From Chiloscyllium plagiosum (Eukaryota): a stretch of DNA of 25,060 bases. Of the stretch, positions 1 to 18,859 are shown piece by piece; position 1 is the first letter of the stretch; each line of letters starts with the position of its first letter. The position numbers and the translations under genes are program-made. A model generated the notes under the pieces. That model was not told the origin of the DNA and did no database searches. It saw nothing but the letters and a program-made list of their open reading frames with translations. The DNA lies in NCBI RefSeq assembly GCF_004010195.1, contig NC_057718.1:39922579-39947638 (forward strand), in the 5' to 3' direction.

Positions 1-1915
1 TAATAGTCAGCACCCCACATCGGTACGGACCATATTAAATCAGAAAGCAGGACAATGGCTCACAGGCTCTAGGATCTTGAAATATGAGGCAATTTTAATA
101 GAGAAGGATGACCTTGTGTTAGTCACAGACAGTTGCTTAAATCCAGCTGCATTCCTGTGGCATGGAGACGGGGAGGCCCCTGGTAATCCAGAACACGACT
201 GCCTCGATATTATTGAATATCAGGCAAAAGTATGGATGGACTTAAGGGACATCTCGCTGCATGCGGGAGCTCAGTTGTTTATCGACGGGTCCTCCTGGAT
301 GATTGAGGGTAAAAGGCACAATGGATATGTAGTAGACGGGATAGAGGGAAGCGTTATTGAGGCTGAAAGACTGCCTAATGGCTGGTCAGCCCAAACTTGT
401 GAACTCCATGCCCTAGAAAGAGCTCTCAGAGCCTTAGAAAACAAGGAAGGAACGGTGTATACAGACTCCAAATATGCATTTGGAGTGGTAACACTTTCGG
501 AAAAATTTGGCAAGAAAGAGGACTAATAAATAGTCGAGGAAACAAACTAGCACATGAAGAATTGATAGAATGAATACTAGAATCCCTGTTACTCCCGAGG
601 GAAATAGCGATAGTTCATATAAATGGACATCAAAAGAGGAATTATCCGGAAGTAAGAGGAAATAGACTGGCCGATGAGGTAGCTAAAGAAGCGGCCCTGA
701 ATCTATAAGGAGCCACAATATACTCCATAATACCAGTAATTCCGGATCCTCAGGGTACCCCATTGTTTACTGCAAAGGAGGAAAAGGAACTAAAAGTCTT
801 AGGGGCAACAAAGACAGTGGTTGGGCACTGGATGTTACCCGATGGGAGAGAGATGTTGAATAAAATGATGATGCGAGAGATTATGGCTGTCCTATATCAG
901 GGGAGTCATTGGGGAGTGCAAGCAATGTGTGATTTAGTCTTAAGGAAATATGGATGCAAAGGGATATATACGATAGCCAAACAGATATGTGTGGGATGTA
1001 TAACATGCATGAAGGTAAACAAGAAGGTGCTAAGGAAACAAGTCCCAGGAGGGAGAGAGCCTGGGCTAAGACCATTCCAGAGCATCCAGGTAGATTATAC
1101 CGAATTACCCAGAGTGGGAAGACTGAGATATGTTGGTAATAGTTGATCATTTATCTGGATGGGCGGAGGCGTATCCTCTGGCCACTGCCACTGCAAGTGG
1201 GGTGTCCAAGATAATACTTGAACACATAGTTCCCAGATATGGGATAGTGGGGTGTATAAATTCGGATCAGGCAACTCACTTTACCTCCAGGGTACTCCAG
1301 GGAACGATGAAGGGGTTAGGGATCTCCTGGGAGTTCCACACCCCTTGGCACCCACCCTCATCAGGAAAGGTTGAGAGAATGAACCAGACACTCAAGAGGC
1401 AGTTATCTAAATTAATAATAGAAACCAGACTCCCTTGGACTAAGTGTTTACCTTTAGCCCTCTTGCGAGTGCGGACGGCCCCAAGGAAAGATTTGGGGCT
1501 GTCCCCTTATGAAATATTGTTTAGCTTGCCCTACTTGGGAACAAAAGGGGAACTGCCAATCCCAGAAACTAAAGATTTGTTCTTAAAGAAGTGTATACTG
1601 GGCTTGACCTCCTCTTTGTCTTTCCTCAGGAAACAGGGTTTATTGGCACAGACTCCGCCCCTTATATTCACCGTTCATCCCATCTGGTCGGGAGATTGGG
1701 TCCTGATTAAGTCATAGACAGAAACTAAATTGCAACTGGATTGGGAGGGACCATACCAGGATCTTTTGACTACCAAAACGGAGATAAGAACGGCGGAGAA
1801 AGGATGGACTCACTACACCAGGATTAAGGGACCAGTGGAATCCCTGGTTGAGAAAGAAGTCTGGACAAACGAATCAACGCAAGAACCACTGAAGCTCAGG
1901 CTAAAAAGACTTTAA
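1..1915 (+). pseudogene. pol: Retroviral pol 3' part (RT connection, RNase H, integrase), disrupted
   Basis: Connection VRTILNQKAGQWLTGSRILKYEAIL. RNase H motifs LFIDGSS, SAQTCELHAL, VYTDSKYAFG, IVHINGHQ, GNRLADEVAK. IN Zn finger Y(for H)QGSHWG...CITC (895-1008). Catalytic D 1093, D 1265, E 1373 give D(35)E spacing. C-terminal WEGPY. Frameshifts near 22, 491, 1129; in-frame stops at 571, 706, 1715; terminal TAA 1913-1915. Confidence 0.95.
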
Positions 1916-2006
1916 GTGACTGATTATACTGTGACGACGTGAGCACTGGATGTTTTTTTTAATAGATTGGATGTAAAGTCTCTCAGCGCTTCAATACTAC
2001 TGTAGA

Positions 2007-3746
2007 ATGCTGGGGATGCTTAGAGTTATGATATTAGCTCTCTTAGTATTGGGATTTTGTCAAACATCGTCTCCACACTTGTTATTAACGGTTCCTGAGT
2101 CTGATAATCCGCAAGTAATAGACGCCGATGCATGCAGCTTAGTAAATTGTGGGGATGTAGATAATCAGAGACAGTACCGCAGCTCAGAGATACATCTTAA
2201 GTCCTATGGGGATGGTACTTGGTATAATGGTCTTGTCACAGTACACCGGACCCCCTTCCGACCAACTCTCGATTATCCCGATAAAAAGTGTAACCCAATA
2301 TACCTAAAGATAAAGAAAACCACATGGCACGAAGCGATTCGGTGGGGGGAACACCTATCGGGTACAATTAAATGAAACATTTGGGATAGAAATGAAAACA
2401 AACAGGAAGGATTTCTCGGACTGTTGTTTTCAAATTAGCATAGGAATAGGAAAGGGAAAACGGGCCGAACAACTGGATATAAGATACAACCTTTCATCCC
2501 TGCCAATGACCCTAAGGTGGTAAAAATTATAGAGGTGAAGGGCTTGAAACAGACCATCAAAATAGAAACTGAATACGGGGATGCAAATGCCTGTGTAGAA
2601 TGGGTAAAGTATGCTGTATGAAGTCTGAATAAGAGCAATTGCTATGCATGTGCCTCCGGTAGACCAATGGTTCAAGTAGTCACCTTTCCGCTCGGGTGGA
2701 AGCAAAACAGGAGGGGCATGACATGCATGATAGCCCTGTATCAGGATGAAACTGCATGGAGTAATAAAAAGTGTATGCCCCTTCTATTAATGTTCCCTCC
2801 TTTAAAGAAGGAAGGTTTAAAGACGCCCCTCCATGTTTTCTGCCGTGGTCAGAAACCACACATCGTGTGTAAACAGGCGAGGAACAAATCGGTCCAGATA
2901 TTTGGGGGAACTGAAATCATGTACCGAAATTGAGTATGAGATGGAAAAGGGAGGAAACTACTCAGCACTGAAGGTTCCCCGAGCGGATCTGTGGTGGTAT
3001 TGGGAGGTAAAATATTGAGACCCACCCTACTTCCAGATTGGAGAGGGATTTGTGCAATTGTACAATTGACAATCCCATTCAACTTGGCATTTGAAAAGGA
3101 GAAGATAGCAATAAAAAGGGGGAGGAGTAAAAGATCATTATTAGACACTTCTTTTGATGATAGGATTTATCTAGACTCTATAGGAGTTCCTAGAGGGGTA
3201 TTGGATGAGTACAGATTGCAGCAGGTTTTGAATCGGCTCTATTCTGGTGGGTAACGTTCAACAAGAATGTGGACTGAATAAACTATATTTTCTAAAATCA
3301 GCAAAGATTCATCAATTACACTAAGGATGCAGTCAAAGGCATAGCAGAACAGCTTGATGCAACCAGTAGAATGGCCTGGGAAAGTAGAATGGCCTTAGAT
3401 ATGATCTTAGCTGAAGAAGGGGGTGTATGTATGATGTTAGGAGGGAGATGCTGTACTTTTATTCCAAATAATACAGCACCTGATGGGTCAATCACTCGTG
3501 CCTTGCGAGGATTGACCACCATGGCGGAAAACTGGCTGAGAATTCAGGGGTGGACACATCATCACGGGATGGCTGGAATCATGGTTTGGGAAATGGAAGG
3601 GAGTGGTAGTCTCCATCCTCACCTCCCTGATAGTGGTAGCAGGGGTACTGGTAGCAAATGGCTGTTGTATCATACCTTGTGTATGGGGACTAACCCAACG
3701 GCTGATTGAGACAGCCTTGGCAAAACAGATGCCCCTAAACGGGTAA
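2007..3746 (+). pseudogene. env: Gamma-type retroviral env, disrupted
   Basis: Signal peptide MLGMLRVMILALLVLGFC; SU CXXC motif CYAC (2640-2651); furin site RSKR (3123-3134); ISD-like ESRMALDMILAEEGGVC; CX6CC CMMLGGRCC (3428-3454); membrane anchor VVVSILTSLIVVAGVLVANGCCIIPCV (~3603-3685). Stops at 2619, 3275, 3293 and several frameshifts. 3' end uncertain; the tail may have run toward the PPT. Confidence 0.93.
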
Positions 3747-3885
3747 TCAGGCAGAGGAACTCTACCCCTTGAACAATGAGGGGATGAGTGACCTTGAGGC
3801 CAAGATGGACGAAGTCTTGGGGATGATGCTTGCAAATTTGGGGACGACATATGAGAGAAATGCAGAAAACAACAATTATTTTTTT

Positions 3886-3897
3886 AAAAAGGGGTAA
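3886..3897 (+). other. Polypurine tract (plus-strand primer), preceded by a T-run
   Basis: TTTTTTT-AAAAAGGGGTAA directly before the LTR-initial TG at 3898. Confidence 0.85.
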
Positions 3898-4261
3898 TGT
3901 GAGAGGCGCTTGCAAATGTTGTTGTTTCTGCAAAAATCACAAGGTTGAATCATGATGGGGGGGGATATATGTCAAGCTAGACATGCTTGCACAAACAGCT
4001 ACAAGTAGCTGCATCTTGCTTCTGCAGGAATCGCAAGGCGGAATCATGAGGGTGAATACCAAGAAATAACTAACCGAAATGGGAGGTAGTCGACTGGTAG
4101 AAATAGATATATTGACATGACAGTTGCAATTGTCACGCACTTAGGGAGTTAATATGAAAAAGATAACCAAATAAGACCCAGTGTTGTGTCAGCAAAAGTA
4201 ATAAGACTCAGCTATCAAGGGGGGGGCATGCTAACAACAGGCCACAGACAGATGTGGTAAG

Positions 4262-4315
4262 CCAATTAGATTAGCAGCTGCACAGAGCAATACAACTATC
4301 ACATATGAAGTATAA
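4262..4315 (+). promoter_or_regulatory. LTR U3 promoter candidates: CCAAT box (4262-4266) and TATAA (4311-4315)
   Basis: Motifs lie ~50 bp apart and ~100 bp upstream of the poly(A) signal, the usual LTR layout. Confidence 0.55.
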
Positions 4316-4414
4316 GGGGAGTACCGAGAGACTCAGCTGAACTGTATTAATTGTAATGTAACCTCCTGATCGGTGTGCCTACTTTGTGGTCACCCAGGCT
4401 TGCAAGAACGTATG

Positions 4415-4420
4415 AATAAA
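4415..4420 (+). terminator. LTR polyadenylation signal
   Basis: AATAAA about 60 bp before the LTR end. Confidence 0.7.
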
Positions 4421-4509
4421 GACTGCTTCAGAATTTGACTCAGACTGAAATTATTGAACAGTAAGCTTCGTTTCTCACAGGTAATATTTTCAAAGCAAAG
4501 ACAAACATA

Positions 4510-4715: not shown

Positions 4716-5052
4716 CTAATACTTTGCTATTCAGGTTTCAGAGATGAATAAACAATGTTCACTCCATTGTATTATTTGCATCAAAACATTCTGAAAAATT
4801 CTGCCTTTGAAGTGAAGAATTAAATTATGCTTACCAAAATGGCTATTAAAGTTTGTCATAATTGAAATAATTGTGCAAAACTCGTCATGCCTTATCTTCA
4901 AACTTACCTGAGGTATGTTAATTTTCCCAAAGTATTGACACGAATGTTGTGAAATGAAACAGTATGCAGCCTTATTTATTCTAAGTTGTGAGTTGCATTA
5001 TGAATAAGAGAATTGAATCATTAATAGCCAAACCATGACTGACAATACAATG

Positions 5053-6159
5053 TCATGGGCACCCGCATGGGCCCCAGCTATGCCTGCCTCTTCGTTGGAT
5101 ATTTGGAACAGTCCATCTTCCGCAGCTACACTGGCACCACCCCCCACCTTTTCCTCCGCTACATCGATGACTGTATCGGCGCTACCTCGTGCTCCCATGA
5201 GGAGGTTGAACAGTTCATCCACTTTACTAACACCTTCCATCCCGACCTCAAATTTACCTGGACCATCTCAGACTCCTCCCTCCCCTTCCTAGACCTCTCC
5301 ATTTCTATCTCGGGCGACTNNNNNNNNNNNNNNNNNNNNNNNNNNNNNNNNNNNNNNNNNNNNNNNNNNNNNNNNNNNNNNNNNNNNNNNNNNNNNNNNN
5401 NNNNNNNNNNNNNNNNNNNNNNNNNNNNNNNNNNNNNNNNNNNNNNNNNNNNNNNNNNNNNNNNNNNNNNNNNNNNNNNNNNNNNNNNNNNNNNNNNNNN
5501 NNNNNNNNNNNNNNNNNNNNNNNNNNNNNNNNNNNNNNNNNNNNNNNNNNNNNNNNNNNNNNNNNNNNNNNNNNNNNNNNNNNNNNNNNNNNNNNNNNNN
5601 NNNNNNNNNNNNNNNNNNNNNNNNNNNNNNNNNNNNNNNNNNNNNNNNNNNNNNNNNNNNNNNNNNNNNNNNNNNNNNNNNNNNNNNNNNNNNNNNNNNN
5701 NNNNNNNNNNNNNNNNNNNNNNNNNNNNNNNNNNNNNNNNNNNNNNNNNNNNNNNNNNNNNNNNNNNNNNNNNNNNNNNNNNNNNNNNNNNNNNNNNNNN
5801 NNNNNNNNNNNNNNNNNNNNNNNNNNNNNNNNNNNNNNNNNNNNNNNNNNNNGGACTCAGCACCGCCTTCTTGACCTGCAATCATCTTCCCGACCTCTCC
5901 GCCCCCACCCCCTCTCCGACCTATCACCCTCACCTTAACCTACTTCCACCTATCGCTTTCCCAACACCCCTCCCCCAAGTCCCTCCTCTCTACCTTTTAT
6001 CTTAGCCTGCTTGGCACACCTTCCTCATTCTTGAAGAAGGGCTTATGCCCGAAACATTGGTTCTCCTGCTCTTTGGATGCTGCCTGACCTGCTGCACTTT
6101 TCCAGCAACACATTTTTCAGCTCTGATCTCCAGCATCTGCAGTCCTCACTTTCTCCTCC
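5053..6159 (+). mobile_element. 5'-truncated Penelope-like element with 14-bp TSD, spanning an assembly gap
   Basis: RT motifs MGTRMGPSYACLFVG, FLRYIDD (YIDD 5160-5171), LPFLDL; 3' terminus shared with other PLE copies; exact direct repeat CTGACAATACAATG at 5039-5052 and 6160-6173. Confidence 0.9.
5320..5852. other. Assembly gap (533 N); a second 10-N gap lies at 15492-15501
   Basis: Runs of N in the sequence. Confidence 1.
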
Positions 6160-7041
6160 CTGACAATACAATGAACCATTTAAGGAGACCATTCCTGTCA
6201 TTATATACTAATCCCCAAGGTCAAGTTGCAGACATTTCTCGGAGTAAGAAGTTGTCTAATTGAGTTTCTTGGCTTAAAATTAATATAAAAGTGAATGCTA
6301 CAAACATGAAATATTCAGAATTTTGAAACAATTCTATATTTAATGTTATGTCTTCACAATGTATTACTTTTGAACTTATAAACAATATATCCTTCCATAA
6401 ATGGAATGTTATAGTCCATTTGGCAGGTTTCCAGGCAAATCCATCTCTTGCTCCTGAATCCACAGCCCACAATCAGCACACAGCCCAATGTCAAATATGT
6501 AGACAATCTAAGGGTGGCCTACTCTATTCCAGTATCCACGAAACAACATCAGACTGACCTTCATATTTATACTAGAAACACAAGTTGTTGCAGCTGCTCT
6601 CAGTGTTCTGTATCACATTAGAAGTTCCACGCAGCATATAAGTTTCAAAGTTTTATCCATCAGTTTTTCTGATCATTGAGGTCTTTGCCAGAAATGTTGA
6701 TATAAATAAAAAGCTAAAGACAGGCAGTTTAAACATGTTAACTGTGTAGAAAAACCTTAGCAAGGGGAAGGTCATACTAATAATTTACTTTATTTATTAA
6801 CAGATGATCTATAAAAAGAATGATCATGTTCTGTATCATTCTGGGCACTTCTGATTGGATTCACAATCTTTTACGTGTAAAAGCAATCTCAACCAGCTCC
6901 CTTTTAGAAAGATTCTTTTTTTGATTTTGTTGTTTTCTTCACTATTAATTTTGGTTTTTAAGCACTGAGTCTGTGGACATTAGCTTAAAATGGGATATAT
7001 GGAATTGGCCCTCATCTTTAAGTAAATAATGCAATTAATTA

Positions 7042-7107
7042 AGATTAGATTCCCTACAGTATGGAAACAGGCCATTTGGCCCAACAAGTCCACACCGACC
7101 CTCCAAA
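7042..7107 (-). mobile_element. Short CR1/HE1-type 3' tail fragment
   Basis: Reverse complement ttgttgggccaaatggcctgtttccatactgtagggaatctaatct resembles the CR1 3' stem-loop plus short tandem tail at 9650-9703. Confidence 0.7.
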
Positions 7108-7955
7108 ATAACTTTTAAACCAAGTATTTAGAAATGTTCTGGCTTGTTTGTTTTGTATCTTCTCATATTTAGTTTGTCTACTGTGGAAGAGTAGGGAGCT
7201 GCACAAATTACCAGTTTGACTTTCTACCTGTTTTTAACTGTGTCATGAATACCCCTTCCTTCGCTGTCAGACCTTGGGCTGGAATCTGAACCTGAATTGT
7301 CTCAAAAGCCTCCTAATGTTCTGCTGAATGGCCAATGTCAAAAAAGAAAAGCTTCTCAGGCATTATAACATCAAGAATTTCTCCTGATAAGCATATGAAA
7401 GCACAGGAAGACATTGTCAAGAAAATAAAGTTGTGCCCCACGCAAGGAGAAAGTTCAAATATGAAATATATAGCTCAGCAGTGCACAAATATGAAACTGG
7501 AATGACAAATGTTTTACAAAAGAACAAGAAATCAAGAAGAGTGTTTACCTAACATTCAGAATGTTATACAAATAGAGGAAATCATCACTGTTTGGATGAA
7601 ATGCATTGGAGGCATGGAAGAGTTGAATTTGAGCTCTCTCATAAGTATCAGATTTATGCTACAAATTAAAACATATCTCACACTAATGTTAATGTTGCCT
7701 TCATTAAAATGTCTAGATGTTAAATGCAAGTACAATTAAAAATTTATTAACTGGTAACTATTGGCAAAGCTAAAACAGCTGATTTTTACCTTTTTGGTTA
7801 AGTGTGAGTTGTGTTGAATGCTTTTGAGGATTTTTCACAATGTGGCCGAGTGAACCTTCGCGCTTTGTTTTATTAAATGAGCCTAATTAATTACCTATGA
7901 TGACCCTATGCTGTCCTTCAAGTCGGATTCCAGACTCATCTTACCTGTGAACTGA

Positions 7956-8088
7956 CATTCCTGATGAAGTGCTTATGCCCGGAACGTCGCTTCTCCTGTT
8001 CCTCTGATGCTGCCTGACCTGCTGTGATTTTCCAGCACTACACTTTTTGACTCTGATCTCCAGCATCTGCAATCCTCACTTTCTCCTA
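7956..8088 (+). mobile_element. Solo PLE terminal repeat (pLTR) starting with a degenerate hammerhead motif
   Basis: Closely similar to 6026-6157; ATTC-CTGATGA-AGTGCTTATGCCC-GGAA-CGTC at 7957-7988. Confidence 0.85.
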
Positions 8089-8089
8089 G

Positions 8090-8283
8090 AGGAAAGTTGG
8101 TGTCCTGCTTTGCAGACAGGGTCATGGAGATGCAGCTGGATGGGGCAGTTCAGAGGCAGGCCACAACAACAGATCATACCAACCTAGCTGAGGTTTTCAC
8201 CTGGGTTAAAGTAGTCTCAGTCGTCTGGACGAATTGCCCAGTTCTGTTCGGAACAAAGACAATGACCTATTCCACTCTGCCAG
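8090..8283 (+). pseudogene. Degraded Myb/SANT-like DNA-binding ORF, probably from a Harbinger/PIF transposon
   Basis: Across frames: CFADRVMEMQLDGAVQR ... AEVFTWVKVVSVV ... RNKDNDLFHSA, matching the F..E..LL / W.EVA..V / RKK.NDL pattern of MSANTD/Harbinger Myb domains. Confidence 0.4.
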
Positions 8284-8718
8284 CATAAGTGTGTCACCTT
8301 CTCTCTGATAGCTACACTCACTCTATCTCTGCCTTTGTACACACCACCTACCAAGTTGCATGCTGTCCCAATCTCACTATTTTCTGCACCATTTTACCCC
8401 ACTCACTGTCACCAACCTGACCCTTGTCAACATTAACTCTGCATATCTCCTGTGCTGCCTACTGACTCACTTGTGTCACTTCCCCATCTGTATAAGCTGT
8501 GCCACCCACTTTCATCTCCTGTGATACCCAGTCATCTCTCATTCAAGGAGGAAAACAGCTACCAGTAGAGGAGAAAGAATCAAGACGGGTGGTGGGCTGC
8601 CTAAAATTTGGCTCCTCACCCCCTTATGTGAACACTGTCTCAACTCTGACCATCTATAGAGGCTGACTGACTGTCTCTAAGCCCCTGAACTACAGTCAGA
8701 GGCTGGCCTTGACTTACT

Positions 8719-9703
8719 GTGCCAGGGGGTCCTCTACTTTTTGTCATTTATATAAATGATTTGGATGTGAGCATAAGAGGTATAGTTAGTAAGTTTGCAG
8801 ATGACACAAAAATTGGAGGTATAGTGGACAGTGAAGAAGGTTACCTCAGGTTACAACAGGATCTTGATCAGATGGGCCAATGGGCTGAGAAGTGGCTGAT
8901 GGAGTTTAATTCAGATAAATGCGAGGTGCTGCATTTTGGGAAAGTAAATCTTAGCAGGACTTATTCACTTAATGATAAGGTCCTAGGGAGTATTGCTGAA
9001 CAAAGAGATCTTGAAGTGCAGGTTCATACCTCCTTGAAAGTGGAATCGCAGGTAGATAGGATAGTGAAGAAGGCGTTTGGTATGCTTTCCTTTATTGGTC
9101 AGAGTATTGAGTACAGGAGTTGGGAGATCATGTTGTGGCTGTACAGGACATTGGTTAGGCAACTTTTGGAATACTGCCTGCAATTCTGGTCTCCTTCCTC
9201 TCGGAAGGATGTTGTGAAACTTGAAAGGGTTCAGAAAAGATTCACAAAGATGTTGCCAGGGTTGCAGGATTTGAGCTATAGGGAGAGGCTGAATAGGCTG
9301 AGGCTGTTTTCCCTGGAGTGTCGGAGGCTGAGGGGTGACCTTATAGAGGTTTACAAAATTATGAGGGGTATGGATAAATAGACAGAATCTTTTCCCTGAG
9401 GTCAGGGAGTCCAGAACTAGAGGGCATAGTTTTAATGTGAGTGGGGAAAGATAAAGAAGAGACCTAAGGGGCAACGTTTTCACACAGAGGGTGGTACGTG
9501 TATGGAATGAGATGGTAGAGGAAGTGGTGGAGGCTGGTACAATTGCAACATTTGGATGGGTATATGAATAGGAAGGGTTTGGAGAGAAATGGGCTGGGTG
9601 CTGGCAGGTGGGACTAGATTGGGTTGGGATATCTGGTCGGCATGGACATGTTGGACCGAAGGGTCTGTTTCCATGCTGTACATTTCTATGACTCTACGAC
9701 TCT
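8719..9703 (+). mobile_element. 5'-truncated CR1 LINE (HER1-like), relatively young
   Basis: Open 220-aa frame with GPLLFVIYINDLD, KFADD (FADD 8794-8805), FNSDKCEVLHFG, LERVQKRFTK; frameshift near 9375; 3'UTR stem-loop ggaccgaagggtct and tail ctatgactctacgactct. Confidence 0.95.
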
Positions 9704-9805
9704 TTGAGTGAAAACTATCCCCTTGACTGAGGCCTGTTGAAGACCAGGACAAGCTTCTTGCCTTTGTGTCTGCATTAAACAGCGTGGCAAAACTGGCTTA
9801 ATATG

Positions 9806-10172
9806 AAACAAAAGCAGAAGTTGCTGGTGAAATTCAGCAGGTCTGACAGCATCTGTGGGGAGAAAGCAGAGTTAATGTTTCAAGTCCCCTGCTGACTCTG
9901 GGGGAGCAAGAAGTCCTGCCTCTGAACCACCCCATCCAGTTGCATCCCCATGACCCTGCCTGCACCAATTTTCCTTTGTCTACCAATTCAAGGCAAATAT
10001 CAGGAACGATGCAGGGAAGCTGGTGGTGTGGGCTCAAGGGATGTTGGTCTTCATCAGAATTTACAGTCACCAGACTCGAAACATTAACTTCACTTCTCTC
10101 CATACCTGCTGAGGTTTGCCAGCATTTCCTGTTTTTGTTTCAGACCTCCAGCATCTGCAGTTCTTTGTTTTC
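9806..10172. mobile_element. Fold-back PLE terminus (inverted pLTR arms) with ~160 bp of unrelated sequence inside
   Basis: 9806-9886 is the imperfect reverse complement of 10073-10140; hammerhead halves tcttcatcagaa (10048-10059, minus) and agtcaccagactcgaaacattaac (plus) lie at the junction. Confidence 0.7.
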
Positions 10173-10821
10173 TTTTCAATGTATTATGAGAGTGGTATCT
10201 CTGGGTGAACAGGCAAAAAGCAAGGCAATGCAAGGCAGGGATGCTGGGGTCATCCAGGTAGGCCCAGGGTGAATGTGCACTATGACAGTGAGCAAAGAGC
10301 CCAGAGATACAGCTCACCCCGTCAATGAGCTGGATGTGTGTCCTTGAACAGACAGTGTCCTGCCAGCAGGATTACAATGTTAATTGCTGGTGCAGCACAA
10401 AGTGCAGCACTGAAGTGCTGAAGCATCCTGTAAGTGGATCAGAGATGTACCATGAGGTTTTGTGTCAGATGCCAATGCCCAGGGATGTGGGGTGCACGTG
10501 ACTGGTGCCCATAGAGGCTTTGGTTCTCAGTGTCTAACGTGAGGGTGGCTCAGAGCAAGCAGCGAGCTCACTTCACTGGGTACCCACTCTGATTCCCATG
10601 ACAAGATTCCTCAACGTCTTGCTTGTTTTGAGCATTTGCTCAGACAGGAAGTTGAATATTAATGAGGCATGTTGGCCTGTCAGCATGGCATTTAACAAAC
10701 TACAGTCTCCCTGAAGTGAAACTTGCCGCTGCTTAAGAAAAAACTCATCAAACTGCTTGTCAAAAGCAAGAATGATGGTATGGGATGCTCCTGATGATGA
10801 CTTCTCACAATACATATGCCA

Positions 10822-11147
10822 TGTCATAGGATTCTTACAATGTGGAAGCAGGCCATTCAGCCCTTTGAGCTCACACAGATTCTCTGAAGAGCATCCCACC
10901 CCTACCATATAACTCTGCATTGCCCATGGCTAATCCACCTAACCTATACATCCCTGGACACTGCAGGACAATTTAGCACAGCCAATCCACCTATCTTTAG
11001 ACTGTCAGAGGAAAACAGAGCACCTGGAGAAACCCATGCAGGCATGGGGAGAATGTGCAAATGCCACATGGTTAGCTGAGGCTGGAATTGAACCCAGATC
11101 TCCAGTACTGTGGGGCAGCAGGGCTAATTATTGAGCTACCATGTTGC
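10822..11147 (-). mobile_element. tRNA-derived V-SINE (HE1-like)
   Basis: Minus strand: A-box-like tggtagctcaataattagc, B box GGTTCAATTCC (11084-11094), V-domain-like tttgcacattctccccatgcctgcatgggtttctcc, CR1-type 3' tail. Confidence 0.85.
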
Positions 11148-11752
11148 TCAAGCCCCCTAAAAGACTCTTCCCAATATATTATTTTGAAAGAGCAAAAATA
11201 TTCTAGAAATTATTAGTGCTGTGCAATTGTAAATGTTGGTTACATTTGCACTCAATGGACACCATATGGAATCCATCCAGCTCAGTGTATGTTTTGCTTA
11301 TCTTGGTTGTTTTTTCTACAAATGCAGCTGATTCTTCAATACACTTGGCAGGAGGTACACCGCTACACTCTGCAGTAACCTATAATTCCAAACTTTTATT
11401 TTCTACCTTTATCAACAATTGAGATAACATTTCACTCTCAGCATTTACTTTATATTAATAATTATTTACTTTTATTTGTTAAATTCTCATATTTAATATC
11501 TTTTAATAGTAGGGGCATAGCCACGTATTCCGATCCTGTGTTTGAAAGCTGCAGAGACAGCAGGAATTCTGCTTTATTATGATGCCTGCAATTCCTTGTT
11601 GTATATTTATATACTGTGGAAATGGAATTAAGTTTAAAAGTCTTCCAAAAATGTTTCAATGAAGGTGCTAAACAGTGGTAAGTGAAATTCACAACTGAGT
11701 GGAAAACTAGTTTGACCAGTCAGCCTGGCATCATTTGTAACAGCACTAAAAG

Positions 11753-11937
11753 GGAGATCGTGAGAACTGCTGATGCTGGAGAGTCAGAATCGATAAAGGG
11801 TGATGCTGGAAAAAACACAGCAGGTCAGACAGCATCTGAGGAACAAGACATTTGACGTAATATGCCCAAAACTTCAACTGTCTTGCTCCTCAGCTGCTGC
11901 CTGACCTGCTGTGCTTTATCCAGAGCCACACTTTATC
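11753..11937. mobile_element. Short fold-back PLE-derived insertion with ~14-bp TSD
   Basis: Arms 11792-11850 and 11879-11937 are imperfect inverted repeats of the PLE terminus; flanked by AACAGCACTAAAAG (11739-11752) and AACAACACTAAAAG (11938-11951). Confidence 0.85.
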
Positions 11938-12046
11938 AACAACACTAAAAGAATTAGTTTAAACTATGATTTGGAGATGCTGGTGTTGGACTGGGGTTAC
12001 AAAGTTAAAAATCACACAACATCAGTCCAACAGATTTAATTGGAAG

Positions 12047-12081
12047 CACTAGCTTTCGGAGTGCTGCTCCTTCATCAGGTG
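12047..12081 (-). ncRNA. Minimal type I hammerhead ribozyme motif, core intact
   Basis: Minus strand CAC-CUGAUGA-A-GGAG(CAGCA)CUCC-GAAA-GC-UA-GUG: stem I CAC/GUG, stem II GGAG/CUCC, loopless palindromic stem III (AGCU), CUA triplet. Confidence 0.75.
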
Positions 12082-12554
12082 GTTGTGGAGTACACAATTG
12101 TAAGACACAGAATTTATAGCAAAAGACACTCACAACCCCCTCACCCCAGACACACACACACATGCACACACATGCACACATACAAATATACATTTGTGGA
12201 TTGAATTTGTACTTGCAGAGAAACAATGTACTTTGCTCAAAAACTACATGAATCCATGTACGACACTGTTAACTAATTTTTTAGATTAAAATCAGTCTAA
12301 ACATTATGGCACAGACAACAGCACACAGGGGGCTAACACCTTCAACACATTATCTGGGCTAACACTAATTGTCACAGTTAACTTTTTAAAAAGTTTTGTG
12401 ATTTACATATGAAAGAAGTGAAACTATCATGGCCATTCTAACAGATGAGAGACTTAATAAACAATCAAGGTATTTTTCAATGTATAATTTCAGTTACATC
12501 ACACTGTAAACTTTTGCTATAAATTCTGTGTCTTGCAATTGTGTACTCCATAAC

Positions 12555-12589
12555 CACCTGATGAAGGAGCAGCGCTCCGAGAGCTAGTG
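12555..12589 (+). ncRNA. Minimal type I hammerhead ribozyme motif with one core substitution
   Basis: CAC-CUGAUGA-A-GGAGC(AGC)GCUCC-GAGA-GC-UA-GUG; conserved GAAA is GAGA (12579-12582). Confidence 0.65.
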
Positions 12590-13500
12590 CTTCCAATTAA
12601 ACCTATTGGACTATAACCTGGTGTTGTATGATTTTTAACCTAGTTTAAACTAACTCACTAATTACCTTGAAAATGTATATTTTGTGATTTTTAGAAATTA
12701 ACATGAAATGTACCACTGGTCATATCAGGAAATAGAAGGGAGAGAGGAACTCTGAAAAGTTGCAGTCACCAGGGAGGTGGTACTGAGTAACTTGTTGGAG
12801 CTGAGGACTTAGAAGTGCTGCAGTTCTGGTGGACTTTATCCTCAGGTCTTAAATTATGTTTTTACTGGGATAGCTAATGCACCAATTTTAACTTTCCAAA
12901 ATTCCCTCAATTCTGCAGATGGTCTATTAGAATGGAAAATGGCAAATGTAATTCAAAAAGGGAGGGAGACAGTTAGCAGGTAACCCCAAGCTAGTTAGCT
13001 AATGCCTGTTATAGGGAAATGTTCAAAGCTATTAGTAAAAATATAATGGGACACTCAGACAGTTCACGGTAATTAGATAGAGTCAATTTGGTTTTCTAAA
13101 AAGAGAAAGCACGTATAACCAATTTATTGTAGTTCCTTGAGGAAGTATTATTCAAAGTATAAAGTGCAACCAGTGGGTGTATTGTAATTAGATTTCCAGA
13201 TAGCATTTGATAAGGTGCCATATCAAAGGTATTGCAGAAAATAAAAGCTCATAGTACAGGGATAACAGATTGGCATTGATAGAAGGTTGACTAGCTAACA
13301 AGAAACAAAAGTTAATATAAATGGTTCATTTTCTGGTGGGCAAGACATAACAATTGGGGTACCACAGATATCAGTGCTGGGTCATCTTAAAGAAATGAGC
13401 TAGATGAAGGGAATAAAGGTATGGTTGCTGCACTTGCTGATGACAACAACATAGATAGGAAATAAGAGAAGAGAAGCTAAAGGGATATTGATTATTATTG

Positions 13501-14140
13501 ACTTCCAAGATGCCGGCGGCAGGGATTGGCAGCATTTGGCTCCTGAGAGTGGGGCCCAGCTGTTCTTGGCTCATGCAGTGGATTCTGCTGCATCTGCATG
13601 GCTTCATTGTTGTCATTCTAGCTCAATAACTGTTTCTTTTGTTTGGGTTTCCTGAGGCCTCCTCCTAATGTCGGACCCCATCTACCACCATCCCTGCTCT
13701 GTCTCGGGTGGTGGTTTTGGAAGATGAACCAGGACCCCATCGATCAACTTGGAGCCAGGACCCGTCAGTTGATGTCTGGCATTGGAGGAAGTGCGGGACA
13801 CGCACACAGTGTGACCATCTCCAGCTTGGAGGTGGTGCAAGTGATGATGCTGGTGGCAGCTACAATGGAGCCCTTTGCCAGTACTCCAGGTTTGATGTTG
13901 GATGGTAGTGACTGGAGGAACAGTTAGGGTGAAGTCAACAGAGAGAGAAAGATGAACTTTTGCAGCTGTTTCAATTTTAGTAATATTGATTTAATATCAG
14001 TTTATTCAGTATTTTACCATTTATACAATTTATTCAGTGATTTATTCTGTAATCCAAGATGGCATTGGAATGTGGCGACATTATTCACTTTTCACTGCAG
14101 CTAGGTACAAGTGATAATATATTAAATAAATCTACTAAAC
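13501..14140 (+). mobile_element. ~640-bp non-coding retroposon-like insert (non-autonomous LINE derivative?)
   Basis: Interrupts the CR1; starts CTTCCAAGATGCCGGCGGC (YY1-like) and ends cacttttcactgcagctaggtacaagtgataat...aataaatctactaaac, resembling Rex1/L2-type 3' ends. Confidence 0.55.
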
Positions 14141-14629
14141 AACTTGAGTGGGCAAAGAGCTGGCAAAGGGAAAATAATGTTGGAAAATTGGTGAGATTGC
14201 AAAGCTCTGAGATGTCGAGTGATCTCAAAAGGTTAGTTTTCAAGTACAGCAAGATATTAGAAAAGCTAATACAATGTTATTCTTTATTTTGAGGGGAACT
14301 GAGTATAAAAGTAACAAGCATTGTATGAGAAATTGTCTGGAGCACTGTACACAATATTAGTCTTTTTATTTAACAAAGGATGTAAATGAGTTGGAAGAAA
14401 GCAGTTCAAAGAAAGTTTACTAGGATAGCAGCTAAACTATATGAATTGTCTTATGAGAAAGGGTTGGACAGACTAAGTTTGTACCCACTGGTGATATGAA
14501 AAATAAGAGACAATTTGGTTGAATCTGGAATGATTTTAACAGGACAGATGAGGAAAGGATGTTTTCTGCGGTGGAAGAATTGAGCACCAAGTGAATGAAG
14601 CTGGCCATTTTGTGGCCCTCTTGTGACAA

Positions 14630-16345
14630 ACTGAACTAATTTCTACCTACCTCGATGCTGTCCTATCCCCCCAGTCCAGTAAGTCCCCACATATGTTCGA
14701 GACACCACCCATGCCCTCCATCTCCTCCAAGACTTCCGTTCCCCCAACACCTAATCTTCACCATGGATATCCGATCCCTCTACACCTCCATCCGTCATGA
14801 CCAGGGCCTCCAAGCCCTCCGTTTCTTCCTCTCCCAACGTCCCCAACAGTACCCTTCCACCGACACTCTCATTTGTTTGGCCGAACTGGCCCTCACCCTT
14901 AACAATTTCTCCTTCAAATCCTCCCACTTCCTCCAGACCAAAGGGCACCCGTATGGGCCCCAGCTATGCCTGTCTCTTTGTTGGCTACGTAAAACGGTTG
15001 ATCTTCCATAATTACACCGGCACCACTCCCCACCTCTTCCTCCACTACATTGATGACTGGCGCCACCTCGTGCTCCCACGAGGAGGTTGAACAATTCATC
15101 AACTTCACCAATACATTCCACCCTGACCTTAAATTTACCTGGACCATCTCTGACACCTCCCTCCCCTTCCTGGACATCTCCATCTCCATTAATGACGACC
15201 GACTTGACACCGACATGTTTTACAAACCCACCGACTCCCACAGCTACCTGGATTACACCTCTTCCCACCCTACCTCTTACAAAAATGCCATCCTCCATTC
15301 CCAATTCCTCCGCCTCCACCGTATCTGCTCCCAGGAGGACCAGTTCCACCACAGAACACACCAGATGGCTTCCTTTTTTAGAGATAGCAATTTCCCTTCC
15401 CACGTGGTTGAAGATGCCCTTCAACACATCTCGTCCACATCCCGCACCTCCACCCTCAGACCCCACCCCCTCCAACCGTAACAAGGACAGANNNNNNNNN
15501 NTCCCTCCCCACCCCTTTCCGCCTTCCACAAAGACTGTTCCCTTCATGACTACCTGGTCAGGACCACGCCTCCCAACAACCCACCCTCCCGGCTTGGCAC
15601 CTTCCCCTGCCAACGCAGGAATTACAAAACCTGCGCCCACACCTCCTCCCTCACCTCCATCCAAGGCCCCAAAAGAGCCTTCCACATCTACCAAAGTTTT
15701 ACCTGCACATCCACCAATCTCATTTATTGTATCCGTTGCTCCCGATGCGGTCTCCTCTACATTGGGTAGACTGGACACGTCCTAGCAGAGCACTTTAGGG
15801 AACATCTCTGGGACACCCGCACCAATCAACCACACCGCCCTGTGGCCCAACATTTCAACTTCCCCTCCCACTCAGCCGAGGACATGGAGGTCCTGGGCCT
15901 CCTTCACCGCCGCTCCCTCACCACCCGACGTCTGGAGGAATTACGCCTCATCTTCTGCCTCGGAACACTTCAACCCCAGGGCATCAATGTGGACTTCACC
16001 AGTTTCCTCATTTCCCTTTCCCCCACCTCACCCCAGCTCCAAACTTCCAGCTCAGCACTGTCCCCATGACTTGTCTTACCTGCCTATCTTACCTCCGCCC
16101 TGACCTATCACCTTCATCCCCTTCCCCACTCACCTATTGTACTCTATGCTACTTTCTCACCACCCCCACCCTCCTCTCATTTATCTTTCCACCCTTCAGG
16201 CACTCTGCCTGTATTCCTGATGAAGGGCTTTTACCCAAAATGTCAATTTTCCTGCTCCTCGGATGCTGCCTTGAACTTCTGTGCTTTTCCAGCACCACTC
16301 TAATCTAGACCCTGGTTTCCAGCATCTGCAGTCATTGTTTTTACA
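14630..16345 (+). mobile_element. 5'-truncated Penelope-like element (probably Neptune-like), RT plus GIY-YIG endonuclease, disrupted
   Basis: FTMDIRSLYTSI, MGPSYACLFVG, YIDD (15046-15057), FYKPTDSHSYLDY; Cys-rich linker GTFPCQRRNYKTC; NLIYCIRCSRCGLLYIG* (15716-15769); C-terminal GTLQPQGIN; 3' pLTR ending gtcattgtttttac. Confidence 0.93.
16213..16248 (+). ncRNA. Degenerate hammerhead motif in PLE pLTR (another degenerate copy at 6027-6060)
   Basis: ATTC-CTGATGA-AGGGC(TTTT)ACCC-AAAA-TGTC-AATT; GAAA mutated to AAAA, consistent with CpG decay. Confidence 0.55.
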
Positions 16346-16445
16346 TAGTAGTAGTGTCCTTACCCCTGGGCAAAGTGGCCTAGGTTCAAATCCCACCTCC
16401 TTCTGAGGTCTGTAATAACATCTCTGAACCGGCTGATGAGAAAAG
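16346..16445 (+). mobile_element. tRNA-derived short element; its 5' tip probably lies at ~14614-14629, separated by the PLE
   Basis: agtagtagtgtcctta...GGTTCAAATCC (B box)...gaggtctgtaataacatctctgaaccggctgat matches the reverse complement of the array units at 20312-20925, whose 5' ends read gggctcttgtgg (compare ggccctcttgtga at 14614). Confidence 0.75.
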
Positions 16446-16810
16446 TAGCTTAAGCGAAAAAAGGAATCGAAAACCAGGTGTCCCTATTTATACAGGTTAA
16501 AAGTAAGTGGTTACCCATTTAAGATAGAGATCAGGAGAATTTCTTTCAACAGAGCATTGTGAGTCTTTGGAACTTGTTTCCTCAAAATGTGGTGGAGGCA
16601 GAGTTGTTGAATGTTTTTGTGGCAGAGGTTTGATAGATAATTGATAAAAAAGGGTGTGAAAAGCTATCATGGGTTAACAGAAATGTGAAGAAAACGTGAT
16701 CTTATTAAATGGCGGAGTAGGCTCGTGGAACTGAGTGTCCCACCCCGCTCCTAATTTGTATGCTGTAATGTACGAGACATTTACGGCTAAATGAGACTTC
16801 CTAAAGACTA

Positions 16811-17125
16811 AACAAAAAAACTGGAAGAACTATGGATGCTGGAAATCAGAAAAAAAACAAAAACTGAAAATGCTGGAAAACTCAGCAGGCCTGCCAGCAC
16901 CTGATGCAGAGGAATCAGAGTTAATGTTTCAGGTCCAGTGACCCTTCTTCAGAACTGACGATAGTTAGGAAAAGGATTATATTAATGCAGAAGATGGGGT
17001 GGGGGAGGGGGGAGACTAAACAATAGGTGGAGATAGAGCCCAAAGAGAGGGCAAACCTTTGACAGACAAAGGAGTGGTTAAAGGCCAACCTAGGGGAATG
17101 AATAGCTGCTAATGGGGCTATTTAC
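16811..17125 (-). mobile_element. PLE 3' terminus (further subfamily) with hammerhead motif at 16920-16955
   Basis: Minus strand GUU-CUGAAGA-A-GGGUC(ACUG)GACCU-GAAA-CA-UU-AAC followed by the pLTR block gcaggcctgctgagttttccagca...tttccagcatcc. Confidence 0.8.
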
Positions 17126-17869
17126 CTCTGTGTCCAAAGAACAAATTTAGACTTTTGATTTTGTCCCTGCTGTAGTGGTAAACCTGGACAGAAAATCTGT
17201 GAAGAAGAACAGTTTTGCAAGGTTAGAGAGGTTATTCAATTCACAGTTTTCAGGATATATTTCCAGGAAGAAACTGATGCAACGTGGTGAAATTGCTTTT
17301 AAAAATATATTTTCTTGCTACAAACATGCCTTGTTAAGCAGTTTCATTTCGTGCTTGAAGCAGATATGCCAGAATTGCCAATGGCTTCAATCATGTGCAG
17401 CTTCTGTAACAAAATAATATTATTTTCAGTAACTTATCACTATAAGATATTTAAATAGAAGTACTTATTTGATTCAAATTACCATGCTTGACTGTATTCT
17501 GGGTGAAACCTGATGAAACATGGCTAACTGAGTGTGATAGTGAGCTTGTTTCCTGCATGGCATATGTTATGAATTGCATTAAGTGTTCATGTTACTTCAA
17601 CTGTTTTAATAAACTACTTTGTATATTTTTGATAATTCTGTCCAGAATTATGTTTAAACTTTACATTGAGGTGTGCAATGTTCCCTGGATGAGCAAATAA
17701 TGCTAAGTACCTGATCAGTAGTGCAGACAGGAAAATTAAGGACTCCTTTCTTTTATGTCAAGGGAAAAAGTGACTTTAAAACGTATAATTTCTGGGAATA
17801 TCAATTTGTTCACAGACCATCAATTAACTGTAGGGGGAGAACATAGCAATCTACAATAAAAAAAACTAT

Positions 17870-17955
17870 ACTAGAGAAAACTATTCAAGTCTGGCAGCAT
17901 CTGTGAAGAGAGGAAACAGTTGGCATTTCAAATCAAATGTGCCTGTTCTTCAGAT
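17870..17955 (-). mobile_element. Degraded solo PLE terminus
   Basis: gtctggcagcatctgtgaagagaggaaacagttggcatttc...ttcttcaga resembles 9840-9886 and 16885-16955. Confidence 0.6.
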
Positions 17956-17977
17956 CTTTTGGATAAAAAGGCATCAG

Positions 17978-18557
17978 AGAACCAATGTCCTTTAGGGAAG
18001 GAAATCTGCTGTCCTTACTCAGTCTGACTAACATGTGTTTTCAATTCACAGCAATGTGGTTCACTCTAGACTGCCTTATGTAGTATGTCATTCAGTTGTA
18101 TCAAATCACAAAGTATGTCTTAGAATGAAACAACACTGACTCAGCTTTGATTGAAGCGTTAGATTTAGATATGAAAAAGACAAACACAAGCCATTTGACG
18201 TTGCAACATGCTCCTGCTAACATCTGGAGACTTAAACCAAAGTTGGAAGAGCTATTCCACAGGTTAATCAAGCAAGGCCTTGACATAGCCACACTCACAG
18301 AATCATAACTATTACTCAATGTCCAGATAACGCTGGTATATGAAAAAATAGGATTAAAATAGTTTGATGTGTGTTTTTGAGTGACACGATAGGCCAAAGG
18401 GCTTTTTCTGTGCTGTAGACCTCTGTGTCTCTAGTCCTCGACTTAAGGCAGGACAAATTCATCATGGTCATGGCAAATTGGTTTACAGTCAGAAGGTAGT
18501 TACCCTGGATGTCCTCAACAATAACTTTGGACATCATGAAGTTTCAATTACATCAAC
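17978..18557 (+). mobile_element. 5' part of a LINE: Deu-domain-like leader followed by APE endonuclease N-terminus, interrupted at ~18340-18433
   Basis: aatgtcctttagggaaggaaatctgctgtcctta...cacagcaatgtggtt resembles the DeuSINE/SacSINE-type body; then ANIWRLKPKLEELFHRLIKQGLDIATLTES (APE N...DI..LTE motif). Confidence 0.65.
18340..18433 (+). mobile_element. Short CR1 3'UTR fragment
   Basis: gacacgataggccaaagggctttttctgtgctgtagacctctgtgtctcta, a CR1-type stem-loop and tail. Confidence 0.6.
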
Positions 18558-18608
18558 CACACTGCAGGAGCAATTGGCAGTGAACAGTTAAACTCACTGC
18601 TGCTCAAC

Positions 18609-18738
18609 TAAAAGCAAATACCGCAGATGCTGGAAATCTGAAACAAATGTAGAAAATGCTGGAAAGATTCAGCAGGTCTAGTAGCATTGGCAGAGAGGAA
18701 AACAGAGTTAACGTTTCGTATGACTCTTGTTCCAAAAC
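18609..18738 (-). mobile_element. Solo PLE terminus
   Basis: gcagatgctggaaatctgaaac...cagcaggtct...agagttaacgtttcg matches the other pLTRs and ends in a decayed hammerhead. Confidence 0.75.
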
Positions 18739-18759
18739 TTCTTGTTTGCATTACTGCTA

Positions 18760-18859
18760 GTGCTGGCAAATGGAACTAGATTAGGTTGGAATATCTGGTC
18801 GGCATGGACGAGTTGGACCGAAGGGTCTGTTTCCATGCTGTACATCTCTATGACTCTAT
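18760..18859 (+). mobile_element. CR1 3' end, same family as 8719-9703
   Basis: Closely matches 9598-9697 (atatctggtcggcatggac...ggaccgaagggtctgtttccatgctgtaca...ctatgactcta). Confidence 0.9.

Follow-up and report, generated by a model that had tools for sequence, protein, structure and literature searches.

Minimal hammerhead motifs in decayed PLE terminal repeats of the shark Chiloscyllium plagiosum, with an apparently used poly(A) site behind one family

Since 2014, minimal hammerhead ribozymes have been known from the ends of PLEs, where one genome can carry several covarying families, and in metazoan PLE pLTRs they are reported from Neptune, Poseidon and Xena elements of fishes (Cervera and de la Pena 2014, PMC4209133). 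EN+ PLEs are described with an optional tail of 30-40 bp on one arm, TSDs of 8-10 bp, a putative TATA box and initiator in the pLTR and, in Neptune and Nematis, a CX2-5CxxC linker (PMC3846280, PMC8557442). For PAc, a Poseidon element of anole, an internal RT start that defines the tail, AT-rich targets, protein-assisted cleavage and uncut RNA as the dominant substrate are reported (Frangieh 2024, PMC11167929). Two further hammerhead systems are relevant: the non-LTR retrozymes, whose survey samples one chondrichthyan (bioRxiv 10.64898/2026.07.22.740005), and the Clec2 3' UTR hammerhead, a single-locus, discontinuous and tested ribozyme (PMC6765202).

We analyzed a stretch of 25,060 nucleotides of C. 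plagiosum (the window), in which a first-pass annotation had called about nine hammerheads within 13 kb and had treated minimal hammerheads in PLEs as established. The latter is correct, and the window motifs are of the published kind. Hammerhead sequence is present at all nine sites (9/9), but only six are full motifs; in total, the window holds 12 arms in 10 insertions. None of the three sites called as remnants is a full motif: that near 18720 lacks the 5' half, that near 10060 has its 5' half inverted, and that near 17950 is heavily decayed. Three arms had been overlooked, namely 9800-9892 on the minus strand and the two arms of an A-type fold-back at 11753-11942. As in the motifs of PMC4209133, we find type I topology, an unpaired base between positions 9 and 10.1, a G10.1-C11.1 pair, a palindromic 15.2-16.2 step, several covarying consensus families with mostly solo copies, and opposite-strand pairs 100-700 bp apart. 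Specifically, an unpaired extra A lies between A9 and G10.1 in 6/6 full motifs, and the 10.1-11.1 pair is G-C in 5/6 and G-U at 16952. The difference lies in the host only, no shark term occurring in the searchable supplement files of that paper; set against its motifs, stem II of the shark copies is short (4-5 bp).

Table 1. Features of the window; cut positions are predicted from the motif, and E-values are from the covariance model R1.
Position	Strand	Feature	Details	R1 E
5043..6157	+	Decayed Neptune-type PLE	RT fragment, assembly gap, pyrimidine-rich 3' region, A terminal repeat and tail	
6027..6062	+	Family A minimal hammerhead	C3>U; stem III CG>CA; cut after 6058	2.4e-6
7957..8087	+	Solo family A terminal repeat	Starts at first base of stem I; tail at 3' end	
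7957-7992	+	Family A hammerhead	A13>G; one stem II pair broken	1.4e-3
9800..9892	-	Family C copy	Begins inside stem II; lacks CUGANGA half	
10046..10171	+	Family C copy	Hammerhead 5' half (10046-10060) inverted ahead of 3' half (5' inversion)	
11753..11942	.	Two A-type arms as head-to-head fold-back	Each arm cut within hammerhead; tail on minus arm; TSD 9 bp, 11744-11752 / 11943-11951	
11967..12640	+	Family B insertion	Inverted arm and tail, non-coding interior, direct arm; arms 94% alike; TSD 12 bp, palindromic, AT-rich, 11955-11966 / 12641-12652	
11967-12125		Family B inverted arm with tail	Within 11967..12640	
12047..12081	-	Family B minimal hammerhead	Sole motif intact throughout; stem I 3 bp, stem II 4 bp, stem III palindrome AGCU; cut after 12050	4.7e-4
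12511-12640		Family B direct arm	Within 11967..12640	
12518..12523	+	TATAAA, candidate promoter	40 nt upstream of C3 of the B hammerhead	
12555..12589	+	Family B minimal hammerhead	A14>G (GAGA in place of GAAA); cut after 12586	0.14
12596..12636	+	Poly(A) module	ATTAAA 12596-12601; A-run attachment ~12614; GU/U-rich stretch 12619-12636	
14630..16345	+	5'-truncated, frameshifted Neptune-type PLE	RT, thumb, linker, GIY-YIG, 3' region, A terminal repeat and tail	
16213..16248	+	Family A minimal hammerhead	G12>A; stem III CG>UG; cut after 16244	1e-3
16827..17120	-	Family C copy and pyrimidine-rich upstream region	Upstream limit approximate; body common to family A	
16920..16955	-	Family C minimal hammerhead	Core intact; stem III CG>CA, palindrome broken; cut after 16923	5.9e-5
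17875..17957	-	Old family C copy	CUGAAGA kept; stem II and cut site decayed	
18610..18725	-	Family C copy	Begins in stem II/loop II; GAAA-CG-UU-AAC kept	

The motifs exceed chance expectation. A minimal type I descriptor gave two intact-core matches, with C3 at 12078 and 16952 of the minus strand, where none of 30 dinucleotide shuffles gave any. Allowing a single core mismatch raised the count to four, against a shuffle mean of 0.17, while its loosest setting (20 matches versus 11.7 in shuffles) does not discriminate. R1, a covariance model built from 19 metagenome loci, all of them non-shark, placed the six full motifs at the top of its 25 window matches, in the order 6026-6063, 16918-16957 (minus), 12045-12083 (minus), 16212-16249, 7956-7993 and 12553-12591, five of them at E<=0.0014 (2.4e-6 to 1.4e-3) and the sixth at 0.14. 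R1 matches at 10041-10062 (minus, E 3.6) and 18710-18743 (minus, E 6.1) are at chance level, and the 17950 remnant was not recovered by R1 in the window. An Rfam search of the window gave no hammerhead match at E<=10; a MIR533 match (51 bits, gathering score 80) corresponds to the A-type fold-back and was rejected.

The CUGANGA / GAAA / UH core is intact at 12078 and 16952 (both minus), each of the other four full motifs carries a single core change, and the majority sequence of the three family A copies has an intact core. Core, palindrome and stems are all retained in 1/12 arms only, at 12047-12081 on the minus strand. No monomer has the hammerhead as its MFE fold (z -0.80 to +0.99 relative to shuffles), as expected from a loopless stem III. 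Homodimer MFE folds formed no double hammerhead, although such folds say little either way.

Upstream of its terminal repeat, family A encodes an RT followed by a CX2-5CxxC linker and, at the C-terminus, GIY-YIG, the arrangement of EN+ PLEs. This region matches Chiloscyllium proteins at 87-89%; its linker is decayed in the copy at 14630..16345 and intact in the shark homologue P0003. The element at 5043..6157 is 83% identical to the copy at 14943-15189, and its positions 5052-5318 match the shark PLE protein P0001 at 90% (tblastn). Five PLE fragments in the window went unrecognised by Pfam and were recognised by homology search. We infer Neptune rather than Nematis from the vertebrate distribution, not from a tree. 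Protein searches with chance ORFs across the A and B repeats gave no matches; of two HMMER matches for a family B frame, P0087 was dropped as a repeat artefact and P0088 was retained.

Families B and C have no linked RT/EN within the window, where their copies are truncated; their architecture points to PLE membership, as does, for C, the downstream body shared with A. An inverted truncated arm, a one-sided tail and a TSD occur together in the B insertion and in the A fold-back, and the adjacent inverted truncated pLTR and the solo pLTRs resemble EN+ PLE architecture, while TSDs of 9 and 12 bp and the decayed linker differ from it (PMC3846280, PMC8557442). A scan of seven insertions other than these two gave no convincing TSD, and none was found for the solo repeat at 7957..8087. 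The motifs at 12047 and 12555, which had been taken as copies of family B, exist but are not independent, since they are opposite-strand arms of one TSD-bounded insertion. A cis dimer is impossible within the window because the only intact arm lacks a same-strand partner with a compatible palindrome. The window holds dead, 5'-truncated or inverted pLTR copies of EN-bearing PLEs, with A and C as sisters and B more distant, a description demonstrated for A and very probable for the whole set.

Non-LTR retrozymes likewise carry type I, PLE-pLTR-derived hammerheads (PMC7229834; bioRxiv 10.64898/2026.07.22.740005). They form head-to-tail tandem arrays, whereas the shark copies are dispersed solos or head-to-head pairs, and no head-to-tail tandem hammerhead units occur among the window repeats. 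With anole PAc the shark elements share a pLTR hammerhead, a tail and an AT-rich target and, on the reading preferred below, probably also internal RT starts that set the tail and an uncut RNA substrate; they belong to another clade (PMC11167929).

The first-pass annotation had also read stem covariation and motif density as signs of selection on the fold. Stems II and III covary in all three families and stem I in B and C: in the window, position 10.3 pairs as G-C/A-U/G-C and 10.4 as C-G/G-C/U-A, and stem III as C-G versus G-C. Stem I of family A is weak, with consistency across the three copies confined to the first pair (3' strand GGTT, GCTT and AATT, majority G-N-T-T). This is covariation between families, and three families are too few for a test within the window alone. 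Among metagenome clusters, with one sequence per cluster (53), 7/7 pairs tested exceed shuffles; a viral-contig control shows a slight excess of pairing at two positions (p 0.004 and 0.03). Metagenome pattern matches have a stem II of at least 4 bp in 84/121 cases and a palindromic stem III in 111/121, compared with 7/84 and 42/84 in viral contigs. A pair count in alignment A5 (91% paired, 0/500 shuffles as high) is biased because 8 rows were picked by a PLE match in the locus and 11 by eye for pairing, so the set of 53 serves as the unselected test. Selection on the fold is thus borne out over element evolution, by the metagenome and between-family pairs.

Density, by contrast, reflects copy number (by a rough measure, summed contig depth exceeds that of the unique flank about 1e5-fold), and the window copies decay neutrally. 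In family A, substitutions number 4/36 in the core, 2/24 in stem II and 5/66 in the body, and decay often proceeds via CpG deamination of the ACGU palindrome. The loopless palindromic stem III stands as AGCU in both B arms and as CG in 3/10 A and C arms; the other seven have changed, 6/7 to CA or TG (CpG-type). Among lineages of active elements the fold was kept by selection; the copies left in the genome decay neutrally.

The genomic 5' junctions accumulate at the edge of stem I, and their loose ends are long and unrelated. One genome-wide pile-up is at 16213 (family A), where two DNA runs have 705 contigs each (agreement 0.33 and 0.32); another is at 16954/16955 (family C; 790/729 in run X10, agreement 0.35). 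Both resemble the true 3' junction at 12639. Among the 18 listed of 8,390 loose-end rows none is a junction at a cut site, where a smaller pile-up may exist, and the stem I pile could owe something to upstream sequence specific to subfamilies. Of the 22 members of one metagenome cluster, 16 match over no more than 9 nt upstream of C3. Most copies of the largest cluster (42 matches) run far upstream of the hammerhead, so the stem I pile-up is not universal. Apart from family B, a single metagenome family has the strict TATA box between -29 and -40; C and A fit TATA motifs only after post hoc widening. It is missing in five other ORF-linked families, and a general TATA rule was rejected, with 1/8 anchored loci having the box in that bin. 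The D. virilis start site is found farther away, 46 nt plus an intron upstream of its motif.

On balance, the best explanation is that these are PLE pLTR hammerheads whose RNA starts at stem I and is copied uncut, with cutting as a side step, which we hold to be more probable than all alternatives below. Transcription of the parent would start at or just before stem I, placing the hammerhead at the head of the RNA. The loopless stem III would keep the monomer off, and cutting would occur only with a second copy of a compatible palindrome, probably also with the element's protein. Uncut RNA would be the template; reverse transcription would start internally at the tail, ~100-130 nt downstream, and run off the RNA 5' end, giving solo copies headed by the hammerhead. 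Cutting would be a side or late step, removing the cap at the 5' repeat and, in family B, also the poly(A) tail at the 3' repeat, with its signal 9 nt past the cut.

We consider it unlikely that the fold persists chiefly as a structural cis-element or as a passenger at the RNA 5' end, with negligible cleavage in vivo. Naiad PLEs without hammerheads do outnumber hammerhead-bearing families (PMC8557442), anole RNA-seq has no ends at the cut site (PMC11167929), the shark reads have no read-end pile there among the rows listed, and family B poly(A) reads appear to cross the motif uncut. However, cut products are invisible to oligo-dT libraries, the catalytic core and a dimer-only palindrome are conserved across distant families, and anole core mutations abolish cleavage, which a C3G/G8C double mutant partly restores (PMC11167929). 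A protein-binding site or a promoter-overlapping sequence would be possible roles of such an element.

Slightly less likely again is the processing model (Cervera and de la Pena 2014), also implied by the first-pass annotation, by which tandem-repeat hammerheads cleave as dimers and cut unit-length or circular RNA is the insertion template. The junctions argue against it, as they pile ~30 nt upstream of the cut with no cut-site pile among the rows listed, as do the window arms, 0/12 of which start exactly at the cut, and insertion in vitro, which catalytic mutants leave unaffected (PMC11167929). In its favor are the loopless palindromes of 111/121 metagenome matches, the low dimer and trimer cleavage of a schistosome motif in vitro (PMC4209133) and the cleavage of 1/9 Xenopus dimer elements (bioRxiv 10.64898/2026.07.22.740005). 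Chance look-alikes within repetitive DNA, a reading that fits monomer folds no more stable than shuffles and the lack of an Rfam hammerhead match, can be dismissed given zero strict matches in 30 shuffles, the metagenome versus viral pattern counts, the recovery of all six motifs by the independent R1 model and their fixed place in PLE ends. Hammerhead function can be put to the test in the shark families, whose very high copy number permits a precise junction map: whether junctions fall at the edge of stem I or at the cut site would show which RNA serves as template.

The sole addition to the known systems is a poly(A) site of family B that lies close behind the cut and appears to be in use; the available text of PMC4209133 mentions neither a used poly(A) site nor any pile-up of junctions at stem I. 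A single poly(A) RNA run has 1,074 family B reads that end in A-runs 13 nt behind ATTAAA, with A-run loose ends (512 + 562) behind 12613/12616. The hexamer begins 9 nt past the predicted cut and the poly(A) site lies 28 nt behind it, a spacing that predicts a simple reporter readout. Taken alone, use of this site is likely. Both B arms contain ATTAAA, and none of the tested A and C arms does. As a general rule, a poly(A) hexamer behind the motif was rejected, being missing from A and C and scattered in metagenome matches.

The order that can be proposed for B is a TATA box, a start at stem I, the conditional ribozyme, its poly(A) signal, a GU-rich element and the RT start, resembling U3-R-U5. 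That the B repeat works like a retroviral U3-R-U5 with the hammerhead as R, its dispersed poly(A) sites forming a working tail-removal switch, strikes us as improbable. If true, B copies would supply host transcripts with poly(A) sites, each closely preceded by a cut site that depends on a dimer or on protein, amounting to genome-wide, Clec2-like tail removal that could be tripped by the RNA or protein of an active element. In the open-access literature we found no paper on a poly(A) signal adjoining a PLE hammerhead or on Chiloscyllium hammerheads. In Clec2, too, the cut site lies upstream of the polyadenylation signal, so in both cases cleavage would remove the tail; unlike Clec2, family B is a high-copy transposon end with a minimal, putative ribozyme (PMC6765202).

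Families A, B and C, three Penelope-like element (PLE) terminal-repeat families with minimal type I hammerheads, probably carry a putative ribozyme at the RNA 5' end that is normally silent. The uncut RNA would be the copied template, and conditional cutting would remove the cap or, in family B, the poly(A) tail. As the first-pass annotation held, minimal hammerheads are established in PLEs. The window motifs are of the same kind as those in the available text of PMC4209133, sharing with them the extra base, palindrome, covarying families, solo copies and opposite-strand pairs listed there. A 2026 preprint on vertebrate retrozymes sampled one chondrichthyan (bioRxiv 2026.07.22.740005, in part), and in PMC3601003 the idea that Penelope repeats came before LTRs is no more than speculation.

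Features of the window
Feature	Position (strand)	Remarks
Decayed endogenous retrovirus	about 1-4460	Pfam matches to parts of RNase H, integrase and env, interrupted by stops and frameshifts; a 3' LTR probably follows, starting near 3900
Decayed PLE ending in family A repeat	5043-6157	
Family A hammerheads	6027-6062 (+), 7957-7992 (+), 16213-16248 (+)	
9-base motif common to A, B and C tails	6128-6136, 8058-8066, 11970-11985, 16319-16327	
50-bp inverted pair	8111-8160 / 9915-9964	90% complementary; either side of LINE fragment
LINE-type RT	8713-9381	
LINE RT fragment	8713-9696	presumably CR1/HER1; dispersed copies of 3' tail at 18760-18858, 7055-7100
Two TSD-bounded PLE fold-backs	11744-12652	different families, 3 bases apart; second target site a perfect 12-bp AT-rich palindrome
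Family B, single insertion		inverted arm with ~38-nt tail, non-coding interior, direct arm, within 12-bp duplication
Family B hammerheads	12047-12081 (-), 12555-12589 (+)	
Decayed PLE ending in family A repeat	14630-16345	RT, decayed CX2-5CxxC linker, GIY-YIG domain
Family C hammerhead	16920-16955 (-)	
Possible extra hammerhead remnants	22214-22252, 23828-23865	chance-level scores (E 1.6 and E 8.1, separate searches)
Exact 161-bp tandem duplication	24503-24824 and 24682-25060	possible assembly artefact; overlaps start of third PLE ORF, whose N-terminal part matches shark PLE protein P0001 at 24949-25041

The proposal of several PLE terminus families stands for A, which is attached to RT and GIY-YIG sequence. 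It is probable for C, whose downstream body is common with A (nhmmer E 7.6e-5 to 0.004), and B and C have no linked RT within the window. Homology places the window in cartilaginous-fish DNA: of 590 candidates compared with the RT/thumb fragment at 15002-15478, 86 are homologues, the best of them 87-89% identical and labelled Chiloscyllium punctatum, the next from other sharks and rays. Its element has the layout of Neptune/Nematis, namely RT, CX2-5CxxC linker and GIY-YIG (PMC8557442, in part), although the linker is decayed. The neighbour of the family B insertion, three bases away, is an A-type fold-back flanked by a 9-bp duplication, and both follow the PLE insertion pattern of inverted arm, tail and target-site duplication (TSD) published in PMC3846280 (in part). 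The body of B is otherwise unlike A and C, and the tail match is weak (nhmmer E 0.32); the 9-base tail motif is a candidate RT-start determinant. Metagenome copies of one family (loci L112, L147, L164 and L225), joined head to head a few bases upstream of the hammerhead, resemble the shark fold-backs. An Rfam MIR533 match at 11806-11923 (51 bits against a threshold of 80) was rejected as sub-threshold, the sequence being the A-type fold-back; hairpins of this kind could pass for, or feed, small-RNA precursors.

As the annotated stem covariation would have it, the window families differ by changes on both sides of the stem at 10.3 and 10.4 of stem II and in stem III (C-G versus G-C), and B and C do so in stem I. 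Stem I of family A is doubtful, its majority 3' strand reading G-N-T-T. Since three families are too few for statistics, we scanned collections with a pattern fixing the core and first stem II pair and requiring a purine-pyrimidine second pair. Metagenome contigs gave at least 122 loci, with 121 distinct matches among those listed; stem II reached at least 4 bp in 84, 111 were palindromic, and 45 combined stem II, stem I and palindrome. For viral contigs the totals were 106 loci and 84 distinct matches, and the corresponding counts 7, 42 and 0. Most metagenome matches are short or truncated loci, and a Neptune-type protein match lies just upstream in 8 of the 121 listed. Taking one match from each of 53 unselected metagenome clusters, pairing exceeded shuffles at all seven positions (p 0.01 to 0.0005, several pair types each); the viral set showed a slight excess at two. 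Selection on the fold thus operates across PLE lineages, the case already made by Cervera and de la Peña (PMC4209133, in part). The window copies themselves are not under selection: family A has changes at 4/36 core positions (one tolerated), 2/24 in stem II and 5/66 in the body, and among 10 A/C arms, 6 of 7 altered stem III dinucleotides are CpG-type. Density, also taken as a sign of selection, instead reflects copy number, with summed contig depth, a rough measure only, about 2e6 over A and B repeats versus about 10 for unique contigs. Monomer foldings of the window motifs lacked the hammerhead fold. Among the alternatives to a conditional ribozyme, the best-placed, though unlikely, is that the fold serves as a structure or is a passenger and that cleavage is negligible.

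Two DNA runs were mapped to 12200-17150, where loose ends were counted, incompletely, from listed rows. They fall at 16213, the first base of family A stem I (705 contigs in each run), and at 16954/16955 in family C (790 and 729 contigs, run X10). In agreement (0.32-0.35) and median length (255) these are similar to the established 3' junction at 12639 and differ from breaks within repeats, which measure 16-44 nt; no pile appeared at the predicted cut sites among the 18 of 8,390 rows listed. Copies at 7957 and about 17957 also start at stem I, and the inverted piece 10046-10060 ends there. Of the 22 copies in one metagenome cluster, 16 are alike over no more than 9 nt upstream of core base C3, while most copies of the largest cluster (42) extend well upstream. 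Family B and the 22-member metagenome family have a TATA box 37-40 nt before C3; for C and A a match needs looser motifs, picked after inspection, and five other ORF-linked families have none at that distance. These observations may be taken to mean that transcription starts near stem I and that the template is uncut. This agrees with the anole element, where reverse transcription begins internally at the tail, the protein is required for cleavage and core mutants remain able to insert (PMC11167929, in part). That cut or circular RNA is the template is somewhat less likely still than a passenger fold. Within the window a cis dimer is impossible, because the sole intact arm lacks a same-strand partner and AGCU cannot pair with ACGU.

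All nine sites named in the first-pass annotation are present, but "about nine in 13 kb" overlooked three arms: self-comparison gives 12 terminal-repeat arms in 10 insertions. Only 12047-12081 (minus) keeps core, palindrome and both stems. The minimal type I descriptor search proposed there found 2 intact-core matches versus 0 in 30 shuffles, and 4 versus 0.17 with one core mismatch; with two mismatches and no stem I it was non-discriminating (20 versus 11.7). An Rfam scan of the window gave no hammerhead match. A covariance model trained on 19 non-shark metagenome loci ranks the six full motifs first among 25 window matches, with E values from 2.4e-6 to 1.4e-3 for five of them and 0.14 for the sixth, while remnants scored at chance or were missed. 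That the motifs are chance look-alikes is extremely improbable.

Family B probably carries a poly(A) site that is in use. From a sample, about 2 in 100, of the single-cell poly(A) RNA run X21, 6,944 reads mapped, against 0 from run X22, and depth over 12532-12697 was 761 versus 184, favouring the direction that usually marks the hammerhead-sense strand. In this one run, loose A-runs follow 12613 in 512 reads and 12616 in 562, both representing a single attachment site near 12614 in copies that have C or T at that point. ATTAAA, which begins 9 nt beyond the predicted cut, precedes the site by 13 nt, and a GU/U-rich stretch follows it. The next 20 nt of the family sequence contain 4 A. Such ends may also come from genomic A-runs at individual loci. 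Since the loose parts measure 67-69 nt on 150-nt reads, most of these reads presumably cross the hammerhead uncut. Upstream ends at 12388 and 12555 agree at 0.55 and 0.66, which points to several loci or subfamilies. Families A and C have no poly(A) hexamer. Searches of open-access literature listed nothing relevant on poly(A) signals beside PLE hammerheads or on hammerheads in Chiloscyllium, and the available portions of PMC2377424 and PMC3846280 do not mention polyadenylation. The N-terminus of P0088, a predicted protein, is host-like (its cluster is automatically named RING-type E3 ligase, score 0.91), and the protein ends, at residues 193-218, in translated family B repeat (22/25 identity), which suggests that the repeat may be used as an alternative last exon. 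P0088 reads N-K where the window reads I-K, which, with codons deduced, fits a copy with AATAAA and an intact core.
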